Origin: an uncultured virus (IMG/VR IMGVR_UViG_3300035180_002914)
Taxonomy: Duplodnaviria; Heunggongvirae; Uroviricota; Caudoviricetes
IMG/VR virus record: IMGVR_UViG_3300035180_002914
Direction: 5' to 3' (one strand)
Length of the DNA: 64,000 nt
Under the pieces are notes generated by a model. It was not told where the DNA came from, ran no database searches, and was given only the letters and a program-made list of their open reading frames with translations. The position numbers and the translations under genes are program-made. Below are positions 3,769 through 54,548 of the stretch, piece after piece (position 1 is the first letter of the stretch; each line of letters starts with the position of its first letter).

Positions 3769-4671
3769 ATGCGAATAATGATTTTAGGAAGTAGCGGATT
3801 TTTAGGAACACATCTTGTTGAAGCGTTAGAAGACAAACACGAGTTGGTTCTAATTGATAGAGAAGAGCCTATTTTAGAATCTCATAAAGACAGATTTTTT
3901 AAATATGATTTAACAAAACCGATAGATCTCAAAACATTCGGCGCTGAGATGGTTATTAATCTCGCAAGTTCTGTCGGCGTGAAATACATTCAAAATAATC
4001 CAGAATCATTCATAAAAAACAATGCTCTTTTAATAGAAATTCTTATTCCAGAGTTAAGAGAACTTAAAGTTCCTGTCATATTCACGAGCACATCTGAAGT
4101 TTACGACGGGCTTCATTTTGACGATACAAGACCTCTTTCTACTAGCGAAAGAGATTTTTACGCTCTAAATAAACTATATACCGAGTCTGTTATTTTTAAC
4201 ACATTTTACAGTCCTGCGATAGTGTTCAGACTCTTCAATATAGTTGGAAAATATCAAAATCCAGAAAGCGGCGTATTTGCAAACTTCTACAACAAGATGA
4301 TGAATAATGATGTTTGTGAAATTCATATTTCGTCTCAAAATTTCTCTCCTCTTAGATCGTTCACTTCTGTTGAAGATTTCATCTTCGGCATCGAATATGC
4401 TATTAAAGATGTCGAAGATGATTTCCGACACGAGTATTGGGGGCAAACATACGATATTATTGCTCCGGAAAATATTGTGACGATAGAAAGACTCTATAAG
4501 ATGTTAAGAGCGCATTTCGAAGCTAAAGGCGTCTCTGTAAAAGATCCGATTTATAGCGAGATCGCTGAAGGCGAAATAATTAACAAAATTTATACTGGAT
4601 ATTTTGACACTGTTCCTTCAGGTTTCAAATACAAATCTCTTGAATGGATTATCGAAAATTACGAAAAATAG
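3769..4671 (+). CDS. NAD-dependent epimerase/dehydratase (extended SDR)
   Basis: GSSGFLG Rossmann motif, TSTSEVY, YxxxK (YALNK), RLFNIVG; start moved to ATG 3769 after an AAGGA RBS. Confidence 0.85.
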   Translation: MRIMILGSSGFLGTHLVEALEDKHELVLIDREEPILESHKDRFFKYDLTKPIDLKTFGAEMVINLASSVGVKYIQNNPESFIKNNALLIEILIPELRELKVPVIFTSTSEVYDGLHFDDTRPLSTSERDFYALNKLYTESVIFNTFYSPAIVFRLFNIVGKYQNPESGVFANFYNKMMNNDVCEIHISSQNFSPLRSFTSVEDFIFGIEYAIKDVEDDFRHEYWGQTYDIIAPENIVTIERLYKMLRAHFEAKGVSVKDPIYSEIAEGEIINKIYTGYFDTVPSGFKYKSLEWIIENYEK

Positions 4672-4697
4672 TCGTCATTCCTCTGACGACCTTTCTA
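4668..4697 (+). terminator. Probable intrinsic terminator
   Basis: GTCGTCA-ttcctc-TGACGAC hairpin followed by T-rich sequence at the epimerase stop. Confidence 0.55.
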
Positions 4698-4782
4698 TTG
4701 ATAACGGATTGTTTTCTTCCACAATAAATCGGTTAAAAATTTGCTTAAAGATTACACCGAAATATTTAAATCTTTCGGGAAT

Positions 4783-4814
4783 TAAGCTTTCTTAAAGAAA
4801 AGTTTAGCTATAAT
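4783..4814 (+). promoter_or_regulatory. Early/host-sigma promoter
   Basis: TTAAGCTTTCTTAAAGAAAAGTTTAGCTATAAT; near-copy at 6824-6856. Confidence 0.6.
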
Positions 4815-4869
4815 TTTTGAAATTAAAAAAGGATTTCAAAATGAAAAACATCGAAAAATATCTAGGCGT

Positions 4870-5004
4870 TTCTAAACTCACTTCTGAATATAAACCGTAC
4901 CGCCGTAACGGCGGTACTTCCTAACTAACAGCTTCTCTAATGAAGCTGAGCACGAAAGGCTTTGTGTTTATAGTCCACAAGGCTGGTTCCCAGCCCAAAC
5001 GACT
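4870..5004 (-). ncRNA. Stand-alone TnpB omegaRNA (copy B); scaffold 5004-4890, predicted guide ATTCAGAAGTGAGTTTAGAA
   Basis: Homologous to the tnpB 3' end with compensatory stem changes; TCGACT-17-TATAAT promoter immediately upstream. Confidence 0.75.
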
Positions 5005-5110
5005 ATGATTATTATATCATATTTGTTATAGTTAGTCGATAGCAAAAGCAGAAAATTGTTAAATGTTAATTTAATGTGTTTATATCGCCGTCCTACAGGT
5101 GATGGTGGAG
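4890..5110 (-). mobile_element. Non-autonomous IS200/IS605-family mini-element (degenerate left end + promoter + omegaRNA/right end, no ORF)
   Basis: Reverse complement matches the left-end sequence at 25969-26055 and the tnpB 3' scaffold at 6582-6700. Confidence 0.8.
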
Positions 5111-5257
5111 TTATCTCGTCTTCTTTTATTTTCGTTTAATTTAAATTTTTTTATAGTATAATAACTAAATTAAAAATTTTCTTTAGTGAACCTATTTCAA
5201 ACAAAATTCGATTACAAATAAATAATTAATCTTATTAAGGAACAATATTAATCTCGT

Positions 5258-6667
5258 ATGAACAAAACTGTAAATCTAGGTTATAAATATCAGATCTATC
5301 CTACAGAAGAACAAAAGAAGCTTCTCGACCATCAAATGTTCGTTTATAATCAAGCCTACAACATCTGTCTTAATCTATGGCAAAAAGAACAAGAAAGAAA
5401 TAGAAAGCTAGAGAAAGCAGATAGAAAATACAGGAAGGATTCGTCTTACGACAGAGTTATAAAAAGAGCTTTAAAACTTAGAAATATTCCTTTTTCTTCC
5501 GTTGTTATTCAACAAGCTAGAATAAATTTTCTTAAGGCGACTAAACGAGCTTTCTCAAAAAATGTTGTTAATGAAAGAAATAAAGCTTTACAAAACGCAA
5601 AAACTCCAAAAGAAAAAGCAAAAGCGCTATCAATCGGATTTCCAAAGTTTAAATCAAGTAAAGATGTAAGACAATCATTTGTGTGGAACAATCAAGCAGT
5701 ATCTATTAAAGAAACAGATAAAAGAACTGCTATTTTGAAATTGATGAAGCAAAACATAAAACTAAGATATCATAGAGAACTTCCAAAAGAATATAAGTTA
5801 ACTTCTGTTGTTATATCTAGAGATGCGACTGGTTATTACGCTAGCATAGGAATTTCTTTTGAAAAAGAAATAGAACCTGTATCTATCGACAATTTGAATG
5901 AAGAAAATTGTATAGGTATAGATATGAATGTTTATAACTTTGCAGTTTCAAACGATGTAGATTTTCTCTTTGAATCGATACCAAACTTAGTATCGGTTGA
6001 ATCAGGACATCTAATAAACAACGGTTCTGCTAATCGTAAAGCAATGCTGAATAACAAAAGAATCAAACTTCTTTTGCGAAAGCAGTCTAGAAGAATTCTA
6101 AAAAACAAAAAATCAAAAACCAAACTAGGGAGAAACTATAATAAAACACAACAACAATTAAATAAACTACAAAAAAGAATTATCAATAAAAGAACGGATC
6201 TATATCATCAAATCTCCTCCAGATTAACAAACAAATTTGATTTGATAGTAGTTGAAGACCTTAAACTAAAGCAAATGACTAAATCTGCTAAAGGAAATGA
6301 AGTCGAGCACGGAAAAAATGTAAGACAAAAAGCAGGTTTAAATAAATCAATTTTAAGAGCTTCATTCTATCAGTTTATATCTATGCTTGAATACAAGCAG
6401 TCGCTTAATGGCAAATTGTTTGTAAAAGTAGATCCTTCCTATACTTCTATGACTTGTTTAAACTGTGGTAATATTGATAAGAACAATAGACCTAAACAAG
6501 ACAAATTTATATGTACAGCTTGTGGTCATCAGACTAATCCTGACCATCAAGCTTCAGTACATATATTGTATAGAGGTATGAAGTCGTTTGGGTTGGGAAC
6601 CAACCTTGCGGACTTATATAAACGCAAAGCCTTTCGTGTTTCAGCTTCGCTGGAAGCTGTTAGTTAG
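5258..6667 (+). CDS. tnpB: TnpB RNA-guided endonuclease (IS200/IS605 family)
   Basis: N-terminal YKYQIYPTEEQK helix-turn-helix, GFPKFKS, RuvC-I GIDMN, RuvC-II VVEDL, CxxC...CxxC zinc ribbon, RuvC-III PDHQAS. Confidence 0.95.
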   Translation: MNKTVNLGYKYQIYPTEEQKKLLDHQMFVYNQAYNICLNLWQKEQERNRKLEKADRKYRKDSSYDRVIKRALKLRNIPFSSVVIQQARINFLKATKRAFSKNVVNERNKALQNAKTPKEKAKALSIGFPKFKSSKDVRQSFVWNNQAVSIKETDKRTAILKLMKQNIKLRYHRELPKEYKLTSVVISRDATGYYASIGISFEKEIEPVSIDNLNEENCIGIDMNVYNFAVSNDVDFLFESIPNLVSVESGHLINNGSANRKAMLNNKRIKLLLRKQSRRILKNKKSKTKLGRNYNKTQQQLNKLQKRIINKRTDLYHQISSRLTNKFDLIVVEDLKLKQMTKSAKGNEVEHGKNVRQKAGLNKSILRASFYQFISMLEYKQSLNGKLFVKVDPSYTSMTCLNCGNIDKNNRPKQDKFICTACGHQTNPDHQASVHILYRGMKSFGLGTNLADLYKRKAFRVSASLEAVS

Positions 6668-6720
6668 GAAGCCGACTCCTTTAAGGAGTAGGCAGTTCAC
6701 TCTATATTGACTCTTTCTTA
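6582..6720 (+). ncRNA. TnpB cis omegaRNA (copy A) and right end; scaffold ends GTTCAC at 6700, predicted guide TCTATATTGACTCTTTCTTA
   Basis: Overlaps the tnpB 3' end; GAAG followed by subterminal hairpin GCCGACTCC-ttta-AGGAGTAGGC and terminal TTCAC. Confidence 0.85.
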
Positions 6721-6823
6721 TTTTGGTGATACTTCTCCGTATGTTTTGAATTTGTCAGGAAAAAAATTCTCAACTTCCGAAGAGGCGTCCGCTTACTTCA
6801 AAACGCATCAAAAATAATTTTCT

Positions 6824-6856
6824 TTAAGCTTATTTAAAGAAAAGACAAGGTATAAT
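6824..6856 (+). promoter_or_regulatory. Early/host-sigma promoter
   Basis: TTTAAGCTTATTTAAAGAAAAGACAAGGTATAAT upstream of the 6882 ORF. Confidence 0.6.
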
Positions 6857-6881
6857 TCTTTATCTTTTTTAGGAGTTCGTT

Positions 6882-7337
6882 ATGAACGATGTAAAAACAG
6901 CATACAAAGTCCTAAAAACTCTTAAAGGACTTTCAGCTTCAAAAGCTGATATAAAAAGAAATGCGGACCTTTTTATAGATAAAATTCTCGAATATTCAGA
7001 AAGCCTAAAAGGTGTTGATATTGACGCTCTATTTGGTGTGGACTTTGAAACTCAAAAAAGAATAAAAGACCTTGAAGAACAAGTTAGAGTTTTGTCTTCT
7101 CAAAATAAATCTCTTTCACTTAAAAATCAAGGAAGACAAACTGTTATAGAAAGCGTAGAAAAAGCTCTCTACGACTTAGAGAGAATCAAAAAACAACATA
7201 AAGGCGAACTTCTTGCTAATGATTTTGAGCTACAAACTACTAAGAATCAATTAAAATTCTACAAAGAAAAATGTGAAAAACTTCAAAAACAACTTGAAGA
7301 TGAGTCTAGAAGAAGAGTAGAAGGACTATTCGAATGA
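6882..7337 (+). CDS. Hypothetical coiled-coil protein
   Basis: AGGAG RBS; heptad-like K/E/L/Q-rich sequence. Confidence 0.7.
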   Translation: MNDVKTAYKVLKTLKGLSASKADIKRNADLFIDKILEYSESLKGVDIDALFGVDFETQKRIKDLEEQVRVLSSQNKSLSLKNQGRQTVIESVEKALYDLERIKKQHKGELLANDFELQTTKNQLKFYKEKCEKLQKQLEDESRRRVEGLFE

Positions 7338-7579
7338 AAAGGATACTCTTTCTTATTATTGTATTGTTCCTATTTTCTGGCTGTTATGATGAAAAACAAG
7401 ATGATTATTTTACAGCGAATAATACCACATTAAAAATAGTTCGCCATTCTCGTTTTGTCTATGTATACTCTCAAACAAAATACGGGTGGAAACTTGAAAT
7501 GTCTTTCGAAAAAGATTTGAATGTAACTAAGAATGACATCATAAAAATCCTACAACTTAAACAGGAAGGAAGAATATGA
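7334..7579 (+). CDS. Small putative lipoprotein
   Basis: Signal peptide with lipobox LFSG-C; ATGA overlap with the upstream gene. Confidence 0.7.
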   Translation: MKRILFLIIVLFLFSGCYDEKQDDYFTANNTTLKIVRHSRFVYVYSQTKYGWKLEMSFEKDLNVTKNDIIKILQLKQEGRI

Positions 7580-8079
7580 CACAATACACTTTAGGAAAAA
7601 ACTTTGTTTCTACATCAGAATTAAGCGAAAAGCTTGGAATTCATTTAGCTACCTTTACTGTTCTAGCTAAAAAATATAAGCTAGAAGAAGATGTAGATTT
7701 CAAAAGAATCTATGATGTCTCTAAGGGTAAAGGAATGAAGAAAACTCTTTTTATAGATACACACTGTGTCAAATGGCCGAGAAAATTCAGAGAGAAAATC
7801 TCTTCAGTAAAAACAGACTACTCAAGCGTTGTTGACTTCACAAAAATCAAAAATGATTTTCCTGAATTGACTGATGATGATATGAAAATTTTGAAAGAGA
7901 AAATCTTTAAAACAAAAATTCAAGTCGGTAAAAAAGAGTTCATTACACTAGACGAAGAAGCGAAAAAGATTTTCAAAAAGACTATCTATGTTTTAGACAA
8001 AGAAGACTTTCTTGATATGAAGGAAGAACTCATCGGTTATATAGAGCTTACAAAAGGAAAATACTTCGTTTGGTATTAA
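7576..8079 (+). CDS. Hypothetical protein, possible N-terminal helix-turn-helix
   Basis: STSELSEKLGIHLATF segment; basic protein; coupled to the upstream gene. Confidence 0.6.
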   Translation: MTQYTLGKNFVSTSELSEKLGIHLATFTVLAKKYKLEEDVDFKRIYDVSKGKGMKKTLFIDTHCVKWPRKFREKISSVKTDYSSVVDFTKIKNDFPELTDDDMKILKEKIFKTKIQVGKKEFITLDEEAKKIFKKTIYVLDKEDFLDMKEELIGYIELTKGKYFVWY

Positions 8080-8179
8080 TTGTTAAACTTTTCTCGGCTA
8101 TAATAACCGAAGTTAAAAGTTTTCGGCTTTCAAAATACATTTTGTCGTAAGACCGAAAAACTTTAATTTCGTTTGAAGG

Positions 8180-8881
8180 ATGAAAATGCTTAACAAAAAC
8201 TCGTTGACAATCCTGTCAAAATTACAAGATATTTCTTCAAGCCTAGTTGTTTCTTATCCTATACTCGGGATTAAAGATATAGATTCAACCATTATGGCCA
8301 AAATCGATCTTTCTAGATACGACTCTGAAGAGTTTGAAGAATTCGGTTTGCTCGGAAAACTTTCCGAATTTCTATCAGTAGTGAAACTTCTTGAAGATCC
8401 GGAAATTAAACAAGAAGATTCAAAACTTATTCTTTCTGATAGGTCAACACAAATCACATATTACACATCAGACCTAGACCTACTAGACAAATATAGACTA
8501 AACTTTAGTATATTTGACAAGGTTGATTCTATTGAACCGATTATTTCGTTTACTCTTAGCGACGAAGATATGGGTAAACTAAGAAAGGCGTCAAGCGTTC
8601 TTAAAGATCTAGAAAATATCACAATCTCATCGTCTGATGATGAAATAACAATTTCTCTTGATTCAGAAACTCTCGGAAATACTTTTTCTATTAAATGTGA
8701 CGGCGAGTCGAAAGAAGATGTTATGCTTTCTTTGAGCAATGATAACTTTAAAAAAATTCCTCTAGGAACATACAGAGTTTCTATACATAGAAATGCGTCA
8801 GGTAAAGTGATTTTTAAATTTGTTTCAAATACTCTAGAAACTTTTGAAGTTCTGGTAGCTGAGAAACCAAAACAAAACTGA
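8180..8881 (+). CDS. gp45: Sliding clamp
   Basis: 233-aa acidic protein with FEEFGL..LSEFLSVV, ITYYTSD and KLRKASSVL patterns in replication context. Confidence 0.85.
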   Translation: MKMLNKNSLTILSKLQDISSSLVVSYPILGIKDIDSTIMAKIDLSRYDSEEFEEFGLLGKLSEFLSVVKLLEDPEIKQEDSKLILSDRSTQITYYTSDLDLLDKYRLNFSIFDKVDSIEPIISFTLSDEDMGKLRKASSVLKDLENITISSSDDEITISLDSETLGNTFSIKCDGESKEDVMLSLSNDNFKKIPLGTYRVSIHRNASGKVIFKFVSNTLETFEVLVAEKPKQN

Positions 8882-8923
8882 TAAATAAATCAGTCTAAAG
8901 AATTTGGCGTTCGTTTTTATCTA

Positions 8924-9094
8924 TCTGTTTTTGCTATCGACTGATTATATAATATAATCATAGTCGTTTGGGCTAGGAACTAGCCTTGTGGACTATAAAC
9001 ACAAAGCCTTTCGTGCTCAACTTCGTTGGAAGTTGTTAGTTAGGAAGCTCTTCTTTTACGAAGGAGCGGTTCACAAATCGTTTAAAAAGGAATT
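8924..9094 (+). ncRNA. Stand-alone TnpB omegaRNA (copy C) with promoter; scaffold 8962-9074, predicted guide AAATCGTTTAAAAAGGAATT
   Basis: Homologous to copies A and B with compensatory changes; ends GGTTCAC; TATAAT boxes at 8948-8958. Confidence 0.8.
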
Positions 9095-9098
9095 AAAA

Positions 9099-10025
9099 AT
9101 GTTTGAATTTTCGTGGGAAACACTTCAACAAAATCTACAAAAAGACGCTCTTCCAGGAGAGAAAAAAGACTTCAAAGACTCAAGGTTTTGGAAGCTTTCT
9201 AAAGATGAAAGTGGTACAGGAGCAGCTGTAATTAGATTACTACCAGACTCAGCAGGTCCAGACGCTAAACCTTTTGTCAAAATATTCCATCACTCAATAA
9301 AATTTACAAGAAACGGTAAAGACTTTTACTACATTCAAGACAGTCCTGAAACAATAGGTCTTCCGTGTCCAGCTTCTGAAAAATGGCAAGAACTATGGAA
9401 CAGTGGTAATCAAGAAAAAGCGAAACTATACTCAAGAAAAATCAAGTATATAGCTAACATACTTGTTGTAAAAGATCCAGGCTGTCCGGAAAACAACGGT
9501 AAAGTGTTCCTCTGGGAATTCGGCACCAAACTTATGGACAAATTCATAGCAGCTATGAATCCAACAGAAGCTATGAGAGAAGTAGGCGTAAAACCAAAAC
9601 AACTTTTCGATCCTACAGCGAATGGATCTTCAATTAGTCTTCAAATTAAGAAAGCTAATAACTTCTTTAATTATGATGATACAACAATTCTTGATGCAAG
9701 TGCTGTTTTCAAATCTACTGAAGCTGCGGTAGAATTTATAAACAAAAATTGTTACAAACTGGATGAGTTTATTTCTCCAGCTCACTTTAAACCATATAAT
9801 GAGTTGAAAGCCCTTTTGACTTTTGCTGAAACAGGTCAAAAAACTGTAAAGGGAGCTGAGATTAAAAATAATGATGTACCTTTTGATGAAGATGAAAAAC
9901 CTAAAGAGATTGGAGTTAAAAAACAAGCTACTATAGAAAAACCTACAAAAAAGAAAGTCGAGGAAGCTCCGGAAACAAAAAGCGTCAATGACGATTTAGA
10001 TTTTCTTGACGATCTAATAGGTTAA
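9099..10025 (+). CDS. gp32: Single-stranded DNA-binding protein
   Basis: DSRFWKL, GAAVIRLLP, ANILVVKDP..PENNGKVFL, acidic C-terminal tail; start at ATG 9099 after AAGGA. Confidence 0.95.
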   Translation: MFEFSWETLQQNLQKDALPGEKKDFKDSRFWKLSKDESGTGAAVIRLLPDSAGPDAKPFVKIFHHSIKFTRNGKDFYYIQDSPETIGLPCPASEKWQELWNSGNQEKAKLYSRKIKYIANILVVKDPGCPENNGKVFLWEFGTKLMDKFIAAMNPTEAMREVGVKPKQLFDPTANGSSISLQIKKANNFFNYDDTTILDASAVFKSTEAAVEFINKNCYKLDEFISPAHFKPYNELKALLTFAETGQKTVKGAEIKNNDVPFDEDEKPKEIGVKKQATIEKPTKKKVEEAPETKSVNDDLDFLDDLIG

Positions 10026-19225: not shown

Positions 19226-19642
19226 TTAGATGGATTGTACCACCTGTTCGAACTTGAGCGAATTTCCTACCGCTGTAAACCCAAGAGATATGAATTCCAT
19301 TGTATATACTGGTTTTATAAGTATATTAACAATAAATTCGCCTCTAGCTATTACTTCAGGAGTATTCTTACTTAAGTCGATATAGAACTGATCTACACCA
19401 GGATCTTGAGCAAGAACCGGAGTAATAGTTGATTTGAATCTTTCTCTTGTAAATTCGTTGTTTTTTGCGAAACAGAACGCATTAGCCATTTTAGAGATAA
19501 CTCTTTCAAGTTTATTGAATAGGCATCTAACATTAACTCTGTCAAACGCACTAGCATAACCATTAAGAGTTTTTTGTCCCCAGATAACTTTACCTTGTCC
19601 GACAAAATTTACTACAGGGTTTACCCTACTTTTGTATAAAAG
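19226..19642 (-). CDS. gp18: Tail sheath protein, exon 2 (138 aa)
   Basis: LLYKSRVNPVVNFVGQGKVIWGQKTL...AFDRVNVRCLF...IKPVYTMEFISLGF, the conserved sheath C-terminus. Confidence 0.92.
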   Translation of the reverse strand, partial: LLYKSRVNPVVNFVGQGKVIWGQKTLNGYASAFDRVNVRCLFNKLERVISKMANAFCFAKNNEFTRERFKSTITPVLAQDPGVDQFYIDLSKNTPEVIARGEFIVNILIKPVYTMEFISLGFTAVGNSLKFEQVVQSI

Positions 19643-20128
19643 CTTTTATATTCGCATTTGTTCGTTACACAAATACCGCATTTACTGCTGCTTATAGTTT
19701 CCTATAAGATTAGACTATATCTTCATCTATTTCTAGATGTCTACCATTTCCACTCACTCGAGTGTACGAACTTTCGTTCTAGTCGTTGAACCTTCTACAT
19801 TTTAAAGTAGCTTGGCTGCTGATTGTCCAATTCTATTCATTTTTAAACATTCAAGCTTAGATTTTCATCTTACTTTGTAGTTGAATAGACTCTAAGGATT
19901 TTCCAGCAATTAGATAGATTAATTTTTCCATATATCACTATATGGCGAGACCTTTTTATAACAATAAAAAGAATAAGAACATTACTGCCTTCGGAACAGT
20001 AAGTGTTTAATATAAAAACACACAGATTATTTATTTTGGTTGTTTTTGTGATATAGGTTTAAGAGAATATATTTGCTTTTAGTTTTCAGTTTCATTAGAT
20101 GTAACTATTTAGGAAGCCTAGTCTGTTT

Positions 20129-21289
20129 TTACCAGACTAGGTTGTTTATTAAAGTATCAAGATCAATCGAACAAGCTCTATTTTTAGATAGATTGTTTCT
20201 AGCAGAAATCATTTCAAGATTAGCTATATTACCTATGATGTATGGCGGAACACAGTTTTTAAAGCCTTCGTGTATTGAAAATTTATGGTCTAGATGGTAT
20301 GAACCTGCTTTATTTGCATGTCCTCTTAAATCATAATCCGGAAGCTTCTTTATCTGCTCATCGAATTTTTTCATACATTTATAAACTTTGTATCTGTAAT
20401 GTTGAAAATCGTCTTTATCTTCTGGTCTAGTAAATCTTCCAGAATTATATTGTGCTTCAGTTTGTCTTTGGTAGAAATTTAATCCGTTTTCGTCTATATC
20501 GTTCAATCTTTTTATATGTAGTCTTTGATAGTAATTTAGTCCGTTTTCGTCTATATCGTTCAATCTTTTTATATGTAGTCTTTGATAGTAATTTAGTCCA
20601 TTTTCATCTATATCATTCAGTTTCCTCTGATGAATTCTGTTGTAATGATCTAATCCATTTTTATCTATATCATTTAGTTTCCTCTGATGAATTCTATCAT
20701 AATGATCTAATCCATTTTCATCAATTTTACTTTTAAGTGTTTTTGCAGCTTTTAAATGTGTTTCTTTGATTTTTTCTTTATTATTTGTATTAGACCATTC
20801 TTGGAATGGAGAATAGAAAGTTCCTCTTTCTAAAGCATTTTTATAACCCTTTAATCCTTCTAATCTACGATAATCTTCACCGTATCTTTCTCTTTTTGTT
20901 TGATCACATTTTTGTCTTATTTCTTTTCTTCGTTCTTCTGTATGAAGACTTTTTGTTTCATTCATTTTTGCTACTCTTTTAGTTTGATCTGTAGAGTATA
21001 ATGAACCATAAGCTGAGTTACAAGAACCATTTCCACAAGTTTTGTTAAAGCCTTTCACGAATGAACGAAATTTTCTTTTCTTTCCACATATTTTACATGC
21101 TAGGTCTTCTAATTTAATTTCGTGGAAAATGATATAAACTCTTTCCATCATTTTTGTATCTTCCGGAAGAAAACTAGTGAAATTTATAATGTCGTCTTTT
21201 CTTCTTTTTATAACGAGAGCGTTTGAGGTAAGAGCATCGTTTCCGAATTTGTTTAGATAGTTTTGGATGTCTTGTTGAAGTTGTTTCAT
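20129..21289 (-). CDS. Intron-encoded HNH homing endonuclease
   Basis: CxxC...CxxxxC N-terminal module, 19-aa repeats, C-terminal YHLDHKFSI...NLEMISARNNLSK. Confidence 0.85.
   Translation of the reverse strand: MKQLQQDIQNYLNKFGNDALTSNALVIKRRKDDIINFTSFLPEDTKMMERVYIIFHEIKLEDLACKICGKKRKFRSFVKGFNKTCGNGSCNSAYGSLYSTDQTKRVAKMNETKSLHTEERRKEIRQKCDQTKRERYGEDYRRLEGLKGYKNALERGTFYSPFQEWSNTNNKEKIKETHLKAAKTLKSKIDENGLDHYDRIHQRKLNDIDKNGLDHYNRIHQRKLNDIDENGLNYYQRLHIKRLNDIDENGLNYYQRLHIKRLNDIDENGLNFYQRQTEAQYNSGRFTRPEDKDDFQHYRYKVYKCMKKFDEQIKKLPDYDLRGHANKAGSYHLDHKFSIHEGFKNCVPPYIIGNIANLEMISARNNLSKNRACSIDLDTLINNLVW
20464..20730 (-). repeat. About five 57-bp tandem repeats in the intron endonuclease
   Basis: Unit DIDENGLNYYQRLHIKRLN and variants. 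Confidence 0.85.
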
Positions 21290-25946: not shown

Positions 25947-26056
25947 TTTATCCATTTTGTGCGTAAAACACCGTCCTTTAGGACGGTGATATAAGCACAT
26001 TAAATTATCAATAATTATTTGATAATTTTCTGTTTTGACTATTGACTAATTATAAT
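25947..26056 (+). mobile_element. Orphan IS200/IS605-type left end with promoter
   Basis: TTTAT|CCATTTTGTGCGTAAAA-CACCGTCC-ttta-GGACGGTG-ATATAAGCAC...; homologous to 54436-54489 and to the reverse complement of ~5025-5107. Confidence 0.75.
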
Positions 26057-26250
26057 AAAAGAGAAAATATCGCTAAATAATATCAAATGAATAGATATAA
26101 ATATTTTAAACTATATTAAAAATTTTATATAGAAGTTTAGTTGAACTAATTCTTATAGTTATATGAAAAATAGAATTCGAAAAAAGTTTATAAAAATGCG
26201 ATTAAAATACTAAAAAGCGCTTCATATTTCAAAAATAGGAGAATTTAGCT

Positions 26251-29173: not shown

Positions 29174-32100
29174 ATGAGTGCAAACACTGCTCCAATTTTT
29201 CCTTCAGTTCCAAAATCAACAGTAAACAATCTTTATTCAGCTAACACTAATAAAGATGGTTCTTTTGCAACTGCACTTTTTAATACTCCAACAGCTCAAG
29301 TAATTGTTGGTAATAAATTGTACATTGCGGATTCTAATAACCACAGAATTAGAACTGTTGATATGGATACTGGAATGACTGAAACATATTTCGGCTCTGG
29401 TTCTAATGCTTCAATAGACGGTTTCGGAATAAATGCTTCATTCAACAACCCTTATGGTATAACAACAAACGGTACAGACAAACTGTATGTTATAGAAAAT
29501 GCTGGTTGTAGAATCAGACAAATTGATTTAAATAGTAGAGAGGTAATTACTCTTGCTGGTTCTGGTTCTTCTAGTTCTCAAGATGGTATAGGAATATCAG
29601 CTACTATTCAATCTGGTGTAAGTATAACTTATTTGAATGGAAAACTTTACTTTGTTCAACAAGCACAACATAAACTAAGAGTTCTTGACCTTACTACTCT
29701 TGAAGTTTTAACTCTTGCTGGTTCTGGAAATGCTGGTTTTAAACCTGGATTTGGTACTAATGCTCAACTTAACTCTCCAAGATATGTTACTACTGATGGT
29801 ACAGATCTTTATATAACTCAAGTCGGAACAATAGTAAAATATATTGTTGCTACAGGAGAAGTAAGACCATTCTCTGGAAATATTTCACAAACATCTATTT
29901 TCTGTGACACTGATATAGGTGATCAAAAAATAGCTATGTTTAATACTCCGAAAGGTGTAACATACGATGGTACTTATGTTTATGTTGCTGATACAGCTAA
30001 TCACTGTATAAGAAAAATAGACCAAACAAATAATAAAACTATTACTCTTTGCGGTATTGGTGGAACTCCAGGATATGTTGATGGAATCGCTTCAAAGGTT
30101 AAATTCAATCAACCTAGAGGACTATTCTACTATTCAGGTTTCATTTATGTTGCTGATATGGGTAATAACTGTATAAGAAAAGTAAGTGTTGCTGATGGCT
30201 CAGCTACTACTGTAGCAGGTATTTCTTCTGCTGGTTATCTTGACGGAGATATTGCTTCAGCTCAATTTGCTAGTCCTGTTGATATCTGTATAGATAAAAC
30301 AACAAATATGGCTTATGTTGCTGACCAAAATAACAATGTTGTAAGAAGAATAGATCTTACTAATAATGTTGTTTCTACTATAGCTGGTGTTGTTGGAACA
30401 TTCGGATCTACAGACTCTGAAAAAGGTCTAAATGCTACATTCAGTCAATTGACTTCTCTAGCATTAGACGAAACAAATCAATTCCTTTTTGTTGCTGATG
30501 CTTCTGCTAACAAAATTAGAAAGATAGATCTAAAATCAGCAAATTTCGGCGTAACTACTGTTGCTGGTACAGGTTCTGCTGGTTCTTATGATGGTCCAGT
30601 AAATGCTGCTACATTTAACTATCCTTCAGGAATAGCTTTTGACGGATTTGAACAACTTTATGTTGCTGATGTCAATAACAACAAAATAAGAGTAATAGAC
30701 CTTAGAAGTAATACTGTTTTCTCAGTTTATGGTTCAGGTACTGCTGGTTCTACTGATGGTATAGGTGTTCTAGCAACATTCTTCAATCCTTTTGATATTT
30801 TTGTATCTCAAGACAGTAAAACTGCATTTGTTGCTGATACAGGAAACTCAAAAATAAGAGCTATTAATACTCTAACAAAAGAAGTAAATCTTCTTGCTGG
30901 TGCTGGTATAGTTTCTTATGGAGATGGTATTTCTATTCCTTATTCTGCTTCTTTTGGTCTAGTATCTGCTACGGCTTATGATGGTAGATATTACTATATA
31001 GCTGATGCTAACACATATAAAATCAAAAGATATGACCCAATAACAAATACTATTATGTTGATAGCCGGAAACGGAAACTCAAATCTTACTGACGGCTTTG
31101 GTATGGCAGCAAGTTTTGGTGTCATTTCACATATGGAATATGATGCAACTTCAAACTGTCTATATTTCTCAGATACAACAAACCACGCAATAAGAAGACT
31201 TGAGCTAAATAATAACTTCTTCATTTCTACTATGGCTGGAGATGGAAATGCTTCTTACTCTGATGGTGCTGGTTACTTTATGGCTTCAGAAGTTAATGAA
31301 CCTAGAGGCGTATGTTCTGATGGTACTACAGTATACTTTACTGATACTAAAAACAACAAAATAAGAAAATACGATATTGCTACTGGTGTGGTTTCTACTA
31401 TTGCTGGTACAGGACAATTCGGTTCTCTAAACGGAGCTGGTACAAGCGCAACATTTAACCTTCCTAAAGGTATTTGTCTAGACCAAACTAATACAAAACT
31501 ATTTGTTGCTGATACTGGTAATAATATGATTAGACAAATAGATTTGAGTAATAATACTGTTACTACAATCGCTGGTTCTGGAGATAATTCTTCTCTTGAT
31601 GGAAATGGTCTTTCTGCTACATTTAACTATCCTCAAGGTATTACTCAACTAAACGGCGTTCTATATGTTGCAGATACTAACTCAAACAAAATTAGAAGTC
31701 TAACTTATAACTCTACTCTTTCACAATGGGTGGTTGCTACTGTAGCTGGTACTGGTCTAAATGCTGTTTCTCAATTAAATCAAGATAATGCAGGTATAAA
31801 CAGACCTCAATATAATGTTGATGGTAACACTGGAAGCGCTGTTTCATTCTTCCAACCAACAGGCATTACTTGTGACGACCAATATCTATATGTTGCTGAT
31901 ACAGGTAACCAAAGAATTAGAAAAGTAAATCCACTAAATGGTGCTACTACAACTCTTGCTGGTTCTCCTTCTGGTGCAATAGGTGGTACTGACGGTACAG
32001 GTCTAAATGCTAGCTTCTATTCACCTACAGATATTACTTGTGATAAATCTGGTAATATACTATATGTTACTGATACAGGTAATAATAAAATCAGAAAAAT

Positions 32101-35100
32101 TATGACTCAAACTGGTGCTGTTTATACAATTGCTGGTTCTGGTTCTGCTGGTTCTACTGATAACAGTACAGGTACTAATGGTACTCTTAATGGTCCTCTA
32201 GGTCTTTGTGTATCTCCAACTGCTGATTATATCTATGTTGCTGATACAAAATCAAATAAAATCAGAAGAGTTTCAACTTCAGGTTACGCTCTTTCAACTA
32301 TTGTTGGAACCGGTAACACTGGTTCTATGGATGGTGTTGGTCAATATTCTCAAGCTATTCTTGCTTCTCCAAATTTCTGTTATCTAGACGAAGCAAATAA
32401 TGCAGTTTATTTTACAGATGGAAATAAAGTAAGAAAACTAGATAATAAAACTGGTATTATAACTTCTGTTGCTGGTTCAGGTGCTTCTGGTTTTGCTGAT
32501 GGTCCTGCTGTTGGAATTCAAGCGTCATTTAACTCTCCATATAATGTTGTTGTTGATTCAGCTTCTAAATATATGTATGTTGCTGATACTGCCAATAACA
32601 AAATAAGAAGAGTAGAATTAGCTACAGGTAATACTATAACTTTTGCTGGTACAGGTTCTAGCGGTTTTGTTAATGGTGAAGGTCTAAACGCTTCATTTAA
32701 TACTCCTGTTGCTCTATGTTTCTCAAAAGACTTTAATACTCTTTATGTTACTGATAGCGGAAACAATGCGATTAGAAAAATAGATGTTGCTACTGCTAGG
32801 GTTGAAACTCTTGCTGGTGGAGCTAGTGGTTTTGTTGATGGTAACTCTACTTCAGCAAAATTTAATTCACCTAAACAAATTTGTCTAGGTCAAGGTCCAC
32901 TTTCAGATTCTCTACTAGTTGCTGATACAGGAAATAACGCAATCAGAAGAATTGTAATTGCTACAGGTCAAGTTTCTACATATTCTGGTCTTACTTCTGG
33001 ATCTTCAGGAAACTTCCAAGGATATTCATCTGGTACTCCGGCGTCATTTAACAGCCATAAAGGTATTGCTCAATACGGTAGTATACTTTATGTAGCCGAC
33101 TCTAGTAACCACAAAATTAGAAAAATTGATATGAGTACAGGCGCTGTTTCTACTATTTCTGGTACTGGTACTTCTGGTTTTACTGATGGTACTAACGGTG
33201 CTGGTTCAGCATTTAATGGTCCTCAAGGTGTAGCAGTAACAAACGACGGAAATTATCTATATGTTGCTGATACAGGTAACCACGCAATTAGAAAGGTAAC
33301 TATAGCTACTGGTGCTACTACTACTGTTGTTGGTGCTGCTGCTCCAAACGCTACAGCTGGTTATGCTGATGGTAGTCAAGGTTCTTCAAGATTGAATGGT
33401 CCGACTGATGTTATTCTTACTCCAGACAATTCGACTATGTATATTTGTGAAGCTGCTGGTAACAGAATTAGATCTGCGGCTATAAATAACTCTTATTCAA
33501 CTTCAACAATTGCTGGTGCTTCTGGAGCGAATGTTGGTACAGCTGGTGGTGCAGACGGAGCAGGATCTAACGCTACTTGTAATAACCCTTCAGGTGGTTG
33601 TCTTGGTGCTTCTGGTGTATTCTACTTTGTTGATAGCGGTGGTTATACAGTAAGAAAAATAACAGGTCTTCCAAATAATCCAAATGTTACTACAATAGCT
33701 GGTTCATATAACTCTTCTGGTTATGCAGATGGAGCTCCTACAGCTACTGCTAGATTTAAAGCTGTTTATGACATTGCTGTTGACGCAAATGAAGCAAACT
33801 TATATGTTGCTGACGGTGGTAACTATTTGATAAGAAGAATTCCTTTGGATGCTTCCGGAAATGCTGGAAATGTTGTGACAATAGCTGGTAATACTAGCTC
33901 ACAATCTTCTGCTGGTAACCAAGATGGTCAAGGTCCAGGAGGTGGTTCTTATAACGCTCTTATAGGTTCAGTTTATTCTCTATTTGTTGATTCTACAGGT
34001 CAATACTTGTTTATGGCTGATACTACAAACCACGTAATTAGAAGAATGGATTTGACTTCTGGCGACGTCGAAACATACGCAGGTATAAATGGTACTTATG
34101 GTTCTGCTGATGGTATAAGAAAACTTGCAGCGTTTAACAGTCCTATAGGTGTTGCTTGTGCTTCTGATGGTACAGTTTATGTTGGTGATGCTTATAACCA
34201 CAGAGTTAGAAAAATAAATCCTTCTACAGGCTTTGTATCACACGTAACAGGTAGTATTTTTGCTCAACCTGGAAGTCTAGATGGTAAGTATGGTCAACAA
34301 GCAGTATTCAGTAGTTATAATGCTACAGGACAACTTCCTCTAAACGGTAACAATATTTGTAAAATAGGCGGAGATGTATTTGTAGCTGATAATAAAAACG
34401 GTCTAAGAAGAATAGCTTCTGATGGTACTGTATCAACTATTTCTACAAAACCTATGTTCTCAGTTTGTACAGACGGAACAAATGTTTTCACTCTTTCTGC
34501 TAACTGTATTTTGAAATACTCTGGTACAGGTTGGACAACAGAATCTACACTTTCTGGTTCTTATAATACTAGTACACAAACTACAAATACTTGTAGCTCA
34601 ACAGCAAGTTCAAATAATTACTACACTGCTGGTACTAAGAACTCAATGGTTTATTCAGCCGGTAAGATATATGTACAAACTCACGATACATTCAGAGTTG
34701 TTGATACTTCTACTGGTTCAGCTGTTCAACTATCATACAATAATACACAAAATGACTGCTACGGATACTATAGTCCTACAGCAAGTATTCCTACTTTCCA
34801 ATCAGCTTTAAGAGGATTATCTTTCATTTCTAAAAATGTGACTGCTATAGCTGATGTTAGATCTGTAAAACTTTGGAATCAAGCAACAGGTGATATTAGT
34901 ATTCTTGCTGGTAGTGCTCTAAGCGGTCTACAAGATGGTGCTCAAATCAATCTAGTAACTCCTACTGATAATTATGACACATTCTCAAATTATCCAGCGA
35001 AAACAACTAAACTTCCTGATGGCAGAATTGTTTCAATAGGCGGTTCAACTGACGGTACTAACGGTATAAAAACTGTTAAAATAGGAACTGTTTCTGGTAA

Positions 35101-38100
35101 TAGTACTACTTGGGTTGCTTCAACTGACTTCCCTGAAGCTGGTGTAATTGAACACAGTGTAGCTACTCTTCCTGATGGAAAAATTATAGTACTAGGCGGT
35201 TATACTGATTCAAGTAATAAAACTGCTTGCGGTTCTTATATAGGTACTGTTTCTAGCGATAATAAAATTACTTGGACATCTATTTCAGCTTGTCCTAATG
35301 GTACAGCTGACGGTCTTCTTGTTGTATCAGGTTCAAATGTTGTTTACTTGTCAAGCAAAAGCTCTGTTATAGGTAAATATACTGGTAGTGATGTTTCTTG
35401 GGGATCATTGTTTAGCGCTCTTCCTAACTCTGGCGGAGGCGTCACAGGTAAATCTGCTATTACTCTTCCTGACGGTAGAATTTTTGTTACAGGCGGTATG
35501 TACTCTGGTAACTGCCAAAGTGAAGCTTATATAGGTGTTTTAGGAAGTGATACTATTAACTGGACATCAGTAACAAACCTTCCGTACACTATGGCTTATC
35601 ATAAATCTTTAGTTCTTTCTAACGGTTATGTAGTTCTTGTTGGTGGACAAACAGGAAATGGTAAAGCATCGGCTTTAGTTTTCTTTGCTATTATTTCTAA
35701 CAATACTGTAAGTTATATTCAAGGAAATAATCTTGATACAGCAGGTATAGTAGATAGCTTAATACTTCTTTCTTCTTCAGATAATAGAGTTATTCTACTA
35801 GGAATGGGTTCATCTACATCATCATATACAGCAACATCTGAAGTTGGTTATTTGTCTATTCCGCCTACATTCACATCTATTACTGGAATTACAACTGATG
35901 GCACAAATTTCTATGTTTGTGACTCTTCTACTGTAAGAAAAATCACTCAAAACGGTATTGTTACCACAATAGCCGGTTCAGTAATGACTGGTTTTGAAAA
36001 CGGCACTGGAGCAAATGCTACATTCAGTACTACACTTAATGACATAGTTTACTCTTCCGGAGCTAACTGTCTATATGTTGCTGATGCTGGAAACAATGTA
36101 ATCAGAAGAATAGATCTAGCTACAGGAATTGTTTCAATAGCTTGTGGTAATGGTCAAACTTCAATGGGTACAGGTGAAGGTATAAACGCTTCTGTTGGTA
36201 CTGTTATGGCTATGGCTTATGATGCTACAAATCAAGATCTTTGGTTTACAGCTTATTCTTCAGGCGATAGTAATGCTGCTGTTAGAAAATACAATGAAGC
36301 TACTCAACAAGTAATTACAATTGCTGGTAGTGGTAACGGTTCTGTAATAAATGGAAATCTACTTTCTTCTAGATTCTCATCAACTATGAACGGTATCATT
36401 GTTGACTCTAAAAACAAAAAAGTTTATGTTTCTGATACAGGAAACAATGTAGTAAGAGTAATTGATCTTGGCTTCCTTCCATATCCACAAGTATTCTCTT
36501 ATACAGGTTCAGGAGTTTCTTCTCAAACAGGTCACGTAGATTATGTTACTGCTACAGGTATAGGTAAACTTTGCAGTATTGACAAAGATAAATTCCTAGC
36601 TATTACTGCTTCAAGCCTTGGACTTGTGAAATACGATATTAGTAAAAACTTTGTTTCAACAATTATCTCATCATTTGCTGATTCGTATTCTACATCACCA
36701 GCAAAAATGACAAGCTCTAAAACAGCTTTAGGTTCATTCGGTCTTTCTTCTGGTTATTTCTCTGTTGGTCTTGATGGCAATATCTACGCTTATAATAGAG
36801 CAAATTATACTATCACAAAATACGATACTACAACAGGTGAATTTAGTCAATTCCTTGGAACACACGGAGCTTCTGGTTCAGCTTCTAACTGTCCAGCTTA
36901 TAAAACTACATTCTCTGAAACAGGTACATACAATGATAGTATTTCTAATATTGTATGGGAAGATGCGAACACAGTGTGGTTCTTCGGACAACCTTATGTT
37001 AGAAGAATAAGCTTCGCTACTGACGATTGTCAAACAATTAACTCTTCTAACTCTTATGGTTCAACTGACGGACAATACGGATCGTTTACAATCGCACATA
37101 TTCCTGGAGCAATTTATGACTCAAATGATAAGTTGATTTACTTTACAAACTCAAACATCTCTACAGCAGTTACAACTGTTAGATCTTTTGATGTTAACTC
37201 TTATTATGTTGAGACTTATGCTGGTGGTACAAAATACTCTGGTTCTGGAGCATCTAACGACGGCGTAAGACTAAGACCATTGATTACATATCCTTCATAC
37301 CTATCTCTAAGCGAAGATGGTTCAAAACTTTATATAGGTAACTGGAACTCAGGCGACGCTAGAATGAGAAGACTCGACATTTCAACTAATCTAGTTGATA
37401 CTGTTCTGGGTGATGGTACTTCTGGTTCAAATGACACTTACGGAAACTTTACAAGAGTAGGAAACGGCGTTCTAACTCCTTTCTATAAATCTGGAAAAGT
37501 TTATTTTGCTGATTATGCAAACTATAAAGTAAGAGTATATGACGAAACCACAAAACTGACTTCTGTTGTTGCAGGTTCAGGTTATTCTGGTTATACTGAA
37601 GGAAAGGCCGCAGTCGGTATGTTTAACTATCCAATGGGTATAGTAGTCGACACAAATGGCGATATTTATGTTGCTGATAGTTCAAATAACAGAATTAGAA
37701 AAATATCTAACGGACAAATAACAACATTTGCTGGTAAAGGTGTTGCTGGTTTTGCTGATGGTAAACCTAGTGAAGCTATGTTTAACAATCCTAATGGTCT
37801 AGCTTGGTCAAGCGATAAATCTACAATTTATGTAGCTGATACTAATAACAATAGGGTAAGATATATCGACAAAGCCACTGGTAAAGTCGGTACACTTTTC
37901 GGAAACGGTTCAGCTTCTACTGTTGACGGTATCGGTGACTCTGCAGCTATTAATGGTCCAATGCATATGGTAGAATTTGAAGGTAACCTTTATGTTACAG
38001 AATACAGCGGTCATAGAATTAGAAAATACGGCTTGTCTGATAAGAGAGTTTCTGTATTTGCTGGTGACGGTACAAAAGGTTATATAGATGGTACTGGTCA

Positions 38101-54435: not shown

Positions 54436-54489
54436 TTTATCCATTTTGTGTGTAAAACACCGTCCTAAAGGACGGTTGATATAAGCACA
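54436..54489 (+). mobile_element. Orphan IS200/IS605-type left-end hairpin
   Basis: TTTAT|CCATTTTGTGTGTAAAACACCGTCCTAAAGGACGGTTGATATAAGCACA, near-identical to 25947-25999. Confidence 0.75.
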
Positions 54490-54548
54490 AATAAATATTT
54501 TACCATACAAAAAAAGCGTCCCACTTATATTATCATTGAGGAATATTA

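Follow-up and report, generated by a model that had tools for sequence, protein, structure and literature searches.

Whether a guide RNA that has lost its nuclease gene can still be put to use is the question raised by a stretch of 64,000 nucleotides (the window) from the uncultured virus IMGVR_UViG_3300035180_002914, in which a tnpB gene, tnpB1, ends in a structured RNA scaffold (copy A) and the same scaffold recurs twice apart from any tnpB gene (copies B and C). The window corresponds to positions 42851-106850, read on the reverse strand, of a 138,481-bp IMG/VR virus record with an estimated completeness of 94%. An earlier inspection of the letters and reading frames (hereafter the sequence-only reading) had proposed that a single TnpB is reprogrammed by three dispersed guides. 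The analysis described here suggests a different history and a related function. The free copies are very probably internal-deletion derivatives of IS605-type elements, in which a left end is followed by the spacer with the tnpB promoter and then by the scaffold, and it is judged somewhat more probable than the alternatives taken together that they give rise to transcripts with which the TnpB proteins of the phage, acting in trans, cut element-free alleles of co-infecting relatives, recombination then copying the elements. This interpretation is preferred because a promoter has been kept, the scaffolds are intact and show compensated changes, left ends have been lost, there is no TnpA and element-free relatives exist.

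A scan of the whole phage with a covariance model, which the sequence-only reading had put forward as a check, returned six full scaffolds, three at tnpB genes (A, E and F) and three free (B, C and a further copy, D, elsewhere in the record and outside the window), together with one 35-nt right-end fragment that sits upstream of tnpB2. The three copies of about 115 nt that had been described in the window are thereby confirmed (Table 1), and the model, built from the six phage copies, found no fourth scaffold in the window. Copies in the record are 85-92% identical to each other, with BLAST E-values of 1e-22 to 1e-38, and their covariance scores of 125.7-141.9 bits are those to be expected of sequences on which the model was trained. 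The same model matches tnpB 3' ends at 11 cellular loci in Sulfurovum, Sulfurimonas, Aliarcobacter, Sulfurospirillum, Helicobacter and other Campylobacterota. As in IS605-type elements generally, the structured RNA overlaps the tnpB 3' end, copy A covering the final 86 nt of the tnpB1 open reading frame (ORF), and runs to the right-end boundary, which closes with GTTCAC in five of the six phage copies and in most cellular relatives, and with GTTTAT in copy B. Judged from these matches, the scaffold is a conserved 3'-end omegaRNA of an IS605-type TnpB clade of Campylobacterota.

All copies fold to common core stems and a terminal hairpin of differing sequence; the stem variants quoted in the sequence-only reading are right, with pairing kept, and the terminal hairpins, as it said, are unlike in sequence and all fold. 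The structural selection that it claimed finds support in an alignment of 18 distinct sequences, in which 95.2% of pair cells pair, compared with 82.8% in shuffles and 38-61% in slid-partner controls, and in which 16 of 28 pairs show two-sided changes; the observed values were reached by none of 500 shuffles. This alignment was fitted to the covariance model and is therefore biased toward structure, but the slid controls and the count of compensated pairs remain clear. Within the phage, stem 2 has C-G in B, U.G in D and U-A in A, a series that is the path expected for an RNA. The compensated changes of two stems lie inside the tnpB reading frame (6593-6616; codons 446-456, tnpB1 compared with tnpB2), and those of stem 3 alter TnpB amino acids, A451V occurring together with R456H. 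RNA pairing thus appears to dictate the protein sequence over codons 446-456 of tnpB1, and the proposal that the scaffold is under RNA-structural constraint is supported.

The protein that would use such an RNA seems well preserved. TnpB1 has the Pfam domains HTH_OrfB_IS605, OrfB_IS605 and Cas12f1-like_TNB, that is, the helix-turn-helix, RuvC and zinc-ribbon domains which with a D-E-D triad mark membership in IS605-type elements. The triad, which the sequence-only reading had reported as kept, is formed by D222, E333 and D429, and neither these residues nor two CxxC pairs vary across an alignment of 16 homologues; a nuclease-dead TnpB repressor of the TldR type was ruled out because the RuvC catalytic residues are kept. 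There is a region of TnpB1 that can be aligned with solved TnpB and Cas12f chains. The closest cellular relatives, about 60% identical, are in Aliarcobacter, Sulfurovum, Sulfurimonas and Sulfurospirillum, and Helicobacter TnpB relatives show about 50% protein identity or lower. The description of TnpB as single is true of the window only, as tnpB occurs three times in the whole record, every gene being accompanied by a scaffold: tnpB1; tnpB2, which lies outside the window and whose product is 86% identical to TnpB1; and tnpB3, which is interrupted by the contig end and extended in a near-identical IMG/VR contig.

The origin of the free copies is best seen against the cellular elements. In the three cellular relatives examined, tnpB stands beside a gene for a 138-aa Y1 transposase, and in Aliarcobacter and Sulfurovum the order is left end (TTTAT followed directly by CC..., a hairpin and GATGTAAGCA), Y1 gene on the opposite strand, spacer, tnpB and right end, the tnpA-tnpB spacer being short with divergent promoters. 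Upstream of B and C lies sequence that can be aligned to this spacer, tnpB -10 region included. Within it, TTTTGCTATCGACT..TATA resembles TTTTCCATAGACC..TATA at the cellular tnpA start, the 13-mer ATATGATATAATA is common to B and the Aliarcobacter tnpB -10 region, and TTTTGCTATCGAC in the left part of B resembles the tnpA start region. The possibility that TTTTGCTATCGACT is a general phage promoter was considered and rejected, as no copies other than those of B and C exist apart from a similar sequence at 26034. The junction ...ATAATCAT/AGTCGTTTGGG (the slash marks the boundary), with a TATAAT box just 5' of it, is common to B and C, as had been pointed out in the sequence-only reading, and with this breakpoint in common the two descend from one deletion event. 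Two small indels are common to B, C and D and absent from A, E and F; cellular scaffolds resemble B, C and D at these positions, and the free copies therefore form a lineage of their own and do not result from recent decay of the resident tnpB copies. A search of Joint Genome Institute (JGI) metagenome contigs for further B/C junctions, using a 19-mer, gave four matches, all of them unrelated chance matches. One Arcobacteraceae locus (L068, G077:C131:1-2020) carries a tnpB with an internal deletion, residues about 8-67 being joined to about 418-467, followed by an intact scaffold, and is a cellular parallel to the phage mini-elements.

It can also be asked how far the free copies resemble the palindrome-associated transposable elements (PATEs), which have no protein-coding gene between two intact ends. 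Neither B (4890-5125) nor C (8921-9074) has an ORF of its own of at least 40 aa, the frame at 8988-10025 being gp32 read from an upstream GTG. The ends, in contrast, are not both intact: B retains the left-end core (AGGACGGCGATATAAACACATTAAA) and has lost the left arm of the hairpin and its tip, and no left-end hairpin was found in C. What has been kept at the left is the promoter region. A consensus scan of positions 4700-9300 gave 22 sigma-70-like sites compared with 15.9 +/- 4.1 in shuffles, so that there is no overall excess, and the sites of B and C, with 10 of 12 matches each, are among the top three of the 22 and end 3-6 nt before the first scaffold base. The C site is TTGCTA-16-TATAAT and that of B is a TG-extended TCGACT-17-TATAAT (-35 at 5039-5034, -10 at 5016-5011). 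The prediction that B and C each carry a sigma-70-like promoter is supported by these sites.

Transposition functions are missing from more than the window. The sequence-only reading noted that no TnpA is in the window, and searches with PF01797 and with Aliarcobacter TnpA found no Y1 transposase in the whole 138,481-bp record, 94% complete as it is; no serine recombinase was found in it either. A host TnpA copy could act in trans. There are only two intact left-end tips in the genome (25947 and 54436), both flanked 5' by TTTAT and both without a scaffold, and no scaffold-bearing copy whose upstream side is known has an intact left end, that of tnpB3 being lost at the contig end. Intact scaffolds combined with lost left ends are what one would expect if selection acted on the RNA and not on mobility. 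The two solitary left ends are intergenic, have near-identical hairpins (ACCGTCC..GGACGGT) and might at present function in termination or as promoters; their hairpin repeats (25970 and 54447) had been taken for plain terminators, an interpretation replaced by that of left ends after alignment with cellular left ends. TTTAT stands 5' of all five left ends that could be read, and because of these flanks, of a CTTTAT in an intact paralogue of the gene disrupted at A and B, and of the known logic of the family, it is likely to be both the target and the transposon-adjacent motif (TAM).

Table 1. Features of the tnpB1 element, the free scaffold copies and the solitary left ends (window coordinates)
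Feature	Position	Strand	Remarks
tnpB1	5258..6667	+	469 aa; gene for IS605-type RNA-guided nuclease; Pfam, alignment and structure matches
Copy A, scaffold and right end of tnpB1 element	6582..6700	+	Ends GTTCAC; 125.7 bits; fold z = -2.8
Copy B, free scaffold	4890..5004	-	Right end GGTTTAT, not GGTTCAC; 126.5 bits; fold z = -4.8
Copy C, free scaffold	8962..9074	+	Between gp45-like clamp gene (8180-8881) and gp32 (9099-10025); 141.9 bits
Left part of mini-element B	5005..5125	-	tnpA-tnpB spacer with tnpB promoter and degenerate left end (core 5094-5070)
Left part of mini-element C	8921..8961	+	Spacer and promoter remnant (8931-8958); no left-end hairpin; TTTAT at 8916-8920
Guide-encoding flank of A	6701..6720	+	Start of C-terminal remnant (6701-6817) of disrupted phrog_4655 paralogue
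Guide-encoding flank of B	4870..4889	-	Antisense of N-terminal remnant (4842-4894) of same disrupted paralogue as A
Guide-encoding flank of C	9075..9094	+	Ribosome-binding region before gp32 start codon at 9099
Solitary left end and spacer remnant, without scaffold	25947..26060	+	TTTAT followed by CCATTTTGTG..hairpin..GATATAAGCAC; no covariance-model match
Second solitary left end	54436..54495	+	TTTAT flank; no scaffold

The three flanks that would encode guides are all different, as the sequence-only reading had quoted them, and they are the flanks of insertion sites. A and B lie inside one disrupted paralogue of about 97 aa, of which the first 18 codons abut the right end of B and the last 38 follow the right end of A, about 44 codons having gone. 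In an intact paralogue CTTTAT precedes the position homologous to the start of the A guide, and the F guide is the tail of a paralogue. The phrog_4655 family to which these genes belong consists of at least eight tandem paralogues of about 97 aa at record positions 114700-121800 (outside the window) and the A/B remnants; each paralogue stands behind a conserved promoter-like block (CTTTAAGC..TTAAGAAAAG..TATAAT), and the family is a hotspot for tnpB or right-end insertions (A, B, F and the 35-nt right-end fragment). The statement that no guide has a second target in the window agrees with a search of the first 16 nt of each guide, which at up to two mismatches gave no second match in the window for any of the three. 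Outside the window, four further paralogues agree with the B guide at all but 1-2 of 16 nt, and TTTAT stands before one of these matches.

For C there is evidence of an element-free form in natural populations. Contigs of four metagenome runs were aligned to positions 4300-9500, and in three runs a single contig each joins 8917 to 9075, skipping the 157 nt (8918-9074) that hold C and its promoter and having 24 other letters instead. The depths of these contigs were 21.7, 6.6 and 27; in the respective runs the main form stood at 54.5, about 8-20 and about 33. The right break of the joint is exactly at the boundary between right end and guide (9074/9075). The evidence for the joint is moderate, its sides being only 30 nt long. 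A syntenic relative (L045), whose gp32 is 66% identical, has a clamp-gp32 spacer of 46 nt that is empty, and since the metagenome joints agree with this, the contigs indicate that a strain without C co-occurs with the present phage. The 24 letters that replace C matched nothing in IMG/VR contigs or JGI metagenome contigs. A further joint, from 4894 to 6701, was seen in a single contig from a single run. It could represent a paralogue or an allele that lacks B, tnpB1 and A, and it was not used as evidence.

The sequence of events that would account for these observations can be set out as follows. B, C and D very probably arose through internal deletions in which tnpA was lost together with the whole of tnpB as far as the first scaffold base, and the ancestral tnpB promoter has in this way come to stand directly in front of the scaffold. 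Each free copy would be transcribed from that promoter through the scaffold into its own 3' flank, and one of the TnpB proteins of the phage would load the resulting RNA in trans. The complex would then cut TTTAT plus flank, as present in a co-infecting relative whose allele lacks the element, and recombinational repair from the element-bearing genome would copy the element and its neighbours. T4-like phages rely on recombination. The outcome would be either TnpA-independent homing or marker exclusion. A bolder extension, which we put forward tentatively and consider rather unlikely as it stands, is that a virulent T4-like phage runs a TnpA-free, RNA-guided gene-drive network, in which several guide-only mini-elements, driven by promoters and stripped of their transposition ends, depend on a small number of tnpB genes. 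Each mini-element would then mark a locus, for example the clamp-gp32 replication module, and force its inheritance in mixed infections; such a network might be viewed by analogy as an RNA-programmed counterpart of T4 seg/mob marker exclusion, and the C-less allele with AAAAT would be drive-resistant.

An important consideration is how far the same observations could be explained without any function of the free RNAs. It is conceivable, although unlikely, that B, C and D are inert, decaying remnants of IS605-type insertions, and that their intact look is due to youth or to gene conversion from tnpB-linked copies. In favour of debris, fragments of all kinds are present in the genome (the degenerate left end of B, the solitary left ends, the right-end fragment of 35 nt), the paralogue family whose disrupted copies hold or adjoin A, B and F looks dispensable, and a cellular genome also has an internally deleted tnpB with an intact scaffold. 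However, all six scaffolds are full length and score alike, the sole eroded one being the 35-nt fragment; the free copies are about 10% divergent, yet their stems are kept through compensated changes; the terminal hairpins are wholly unlike and all pair; and the promoter is retained in B and C. A number of further points weigh against use of the free copies in trans, and several of them favour debris. The right end of B has the inferred TAM (GGTTTAT, with TTTAT at 4890-4894) before its own guide sequence, so that a working B guide would cut its own locus, and this end would be tolerable only with B inactive. The TTTAT of B could have arisen from two C-to-T changes or from the paralogue's own codons (TAT AAA), and since the same five bases fit those codons the position of the junction is ambiguous. 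B moreover has a perfect 9-bp hairpin followed by GGTTTATATT, flagged as terminator-like and located before the guide. The end of B therefore argues against B as an active guide. The fold of D is no better than that of shuffles (z-score only -0.7), and its -10-like box abuts the scaffold and is less convincing. With only three free copies the covariation among them is thin, two pairs being compensated, one a wobble and one lost, and some of it could be inherited from tnpB-linked copies by recombination, which is possible because the terminal hairpins of B and F, and those of C and E, are alike. Synonymous divergence between tnpB1 and tnpB2, which was also used to seek the 5' edge of the scaffold, is not clearly lower within it (3 of 28 codons compared with 79 of 441). 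Fragmentation has gone both ways, leaving left ends without a scaffold as well as the right-end fragment, and random decay can therefore explain part of the pattern. Finally, the C-less allele has AAAAT and not TTTAT before the guide match, and 24 extra letters, and TTAAT stands before a second, partial guide match (8 of 16). This allele is therefore no simple empty site open to cleavage, and may be diverged or resistant.

Two other explanations fare less well. It is improbable that the mini-elements are domesticated promoter or leader modules for the genes downstream (gp32 for C and the next gene for D), the scaffold being merely a structured 5' leader. In favour of this, C ends 24 nt before the gp32 start codon, its flank holds the ribosome-binding region and its promoter site is near consensus, and D ends about 20 nt before an ATG. 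But what follows B is a gene remnant in antisense, so that a promoter there would serve no gene, L045 has its gp32 behind the 46-nt spacer without any such module, there is the co-occurring strain without C, and the conserved pairing of the scaffold is left unexplained. The least probable account, and a very doubtful one, is that of the sequence-only reading, namely a single TnpB reprogrammed by a dedicated set of three dispersed guides as a purpose-built multi-guide weapon. The window with its one tnpB, three scaffolds and different flanks does suggest it. The whole record, however, has three tnpB genes with scaffolds of their own, the guides are the flanks of insertion sites, two of them in remnants of one paralogue, and the free copies derive by deletion from ordinary IS605-type elements. 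The notion of a designed system was accordingly not upheld, deletion derivatives of this kind having already been described as PATE-like. Homing guided in trans by TnpB therefore remains the preferred interpretation of B, C and D. If the free copies are used, they would show TnpB operating in nature on guides from separate, guide-only loci and in the absence of a transposase, a case in which the homing (gene-drive) role of TnpB is separated from transposition, and an RNA-guided route to marker exclusion between phages. They also delimit a natural minimal scaffold of about 113-119 nt, its length set by promoter fusion and not by processing of tnpB mRNA, which would be useful for trimming the guide RNAs of the clade. 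If the copies are inert, they are still a clear example of the fragmentation of an IS605-type element in a phage genome.

The phage is T4-like, since the window encodes a UvsW-like helicase, a gp45-like sliding clamp, gp32 and a T4-type RNase H. A run search for near-identical DNA gave six DNA metagenome runs, from sediment and microbial mats, and no RNA run. IMG/VR contigs recovered through the scaffold or TnpB are 99.9-100% identical to the present phage and so add no independent copies. The host, judged by the cellular relatives of the elements, is probably a member of the Campylobacterota, and the elements were most likely acquired by a T4-like phage from such hosts. A number of other features of the window may be mentioned. 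A group I intron lies at 19691-19967 on the minus strand (Rfam RF00028, 85.4 bits, with the model matched over its full length); just downstream of it an ORF at 19226-19489 (minus strand) has a weak match to a tail-sheath C-terminus, and the ORF upstream of it contains four 57-nt tandem repeats (20464-20691). A very long gene region on the plus strand (29300-39500) has dozens of diverged repeats of about 170 nt with the motif ..YVAD..GN..IR.I..; the repeats are NHL-like as judged by eye, and the region probably encodes a giant fibre or adhesin. Dense short-period tandem repeats, with periods of 21 and 24 nt and about 15 or more copies, occupy the coding region at 45360-46260.

The scaffold was also searched for outside this phage. 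Among 50,697 phage records the only matches were to three Helicobacter prophages, weak DNA matches at tnpB 3' ends, one of them on a tnpB pseudogene and two under transposase-type annotations. A scaffold match was found in 4 of 121 Arcobacteraceae genomes, and there was none at the 18 other loci of gp32-linked relatives. IS608/IS605 of Helicobacter pylori combine a Y1 TnpA with TnpB, have subterminal hairpins and insert 3' of TTAC. The present family is comparable in these traits, with TTTAT in place of TTAC as the short motif, but the phage copies are without tnpA.

A number of described systems bear on the free copies. IS200/IS605 elements in T4-like phages of Campylobacterota are not new: ISCaje1-4, members of that family and mostly TnpB-only, occur in the T4-like Campylobacter phages CP220 and CPt10, at differing sites in near-identical phages and with tnpA in one element (Timms et al. 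2010, PMC2853527). The likeness is one of description only; the paper predates omegaRNAs and reports no protein-less copies. According to a preprint (Meers et al. 2023, PMC10055086), PATEs "often encode omegaRNAs" that would act in trans, and the PATE-like elements of Geobacillus stearothermophilus in the same preprint are gene-less, derive from TnpB-bearing insertion sequences, keep the omegaRNA right end and have been proposed to need TnpB in trans. Those elements, however, keep both ends, lie on a bacterial chromosome and are thought to be moved by a resident TnpA, whereas the phage has no tnpA, the left ends of its copies have either degenerated or disappeared, and its free scaffolds are joined at their first base to the tnpB promoter. 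Stand-alone omegaRNAs without an adjacent nuclease gene, with partners suggested to be encoded elsewhere, were described by Altae-Tran et al. 2021 according to a commentary (PMC11610941); they were reported for cellular chromosomes, whereas the present copies are in a phage.

The proposed outcome also has precedents. Spread of a TnpB element without TnpA has been described in plasmids as a gene drive (Mears et al. preprint), and a 2026 review (PMC13565253) uses the term 'transposon non-restorative homing' for the cutting of element-free replicon copies and their repair from a bearing copy, naming co-infecting phages as possible targets. The plasmid work concerned a full TnpB element, and not phages or guide-only copies. 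The free-standing seg/mob homing endonucleases of T4 have the same proposed outcome, localized marker exclusion among co-infecting T4-like phages, but their recognition is protein-based and there is no homology. In VIPR systems (Lopez et al. 2026 preprint) phages also carry solo guide RNAs, orphan guides for an RNA-guided protein encoded elsewhere, but these belong to another protein and RNA family, have a non-contiguous recognition code and act by silencing and not by cutting, so that this is an analogy only. In the literature, phage records and Arcobacteraceae genomes searched, no description was found of phage-borne copies that consist of a guide only, of fusion between a tnpB promoter and the start of the scaffold, or of guide-bearing copies without left ends. 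As a kind, then, protein-less copies that would guide in trans are already known, the phage-borne, promoter-fused and left-end-less form seen here was not found described, and its value lies mainly in offering a natural setting in which to test whether phages use homing that is guided in trans and independent of TnpA.

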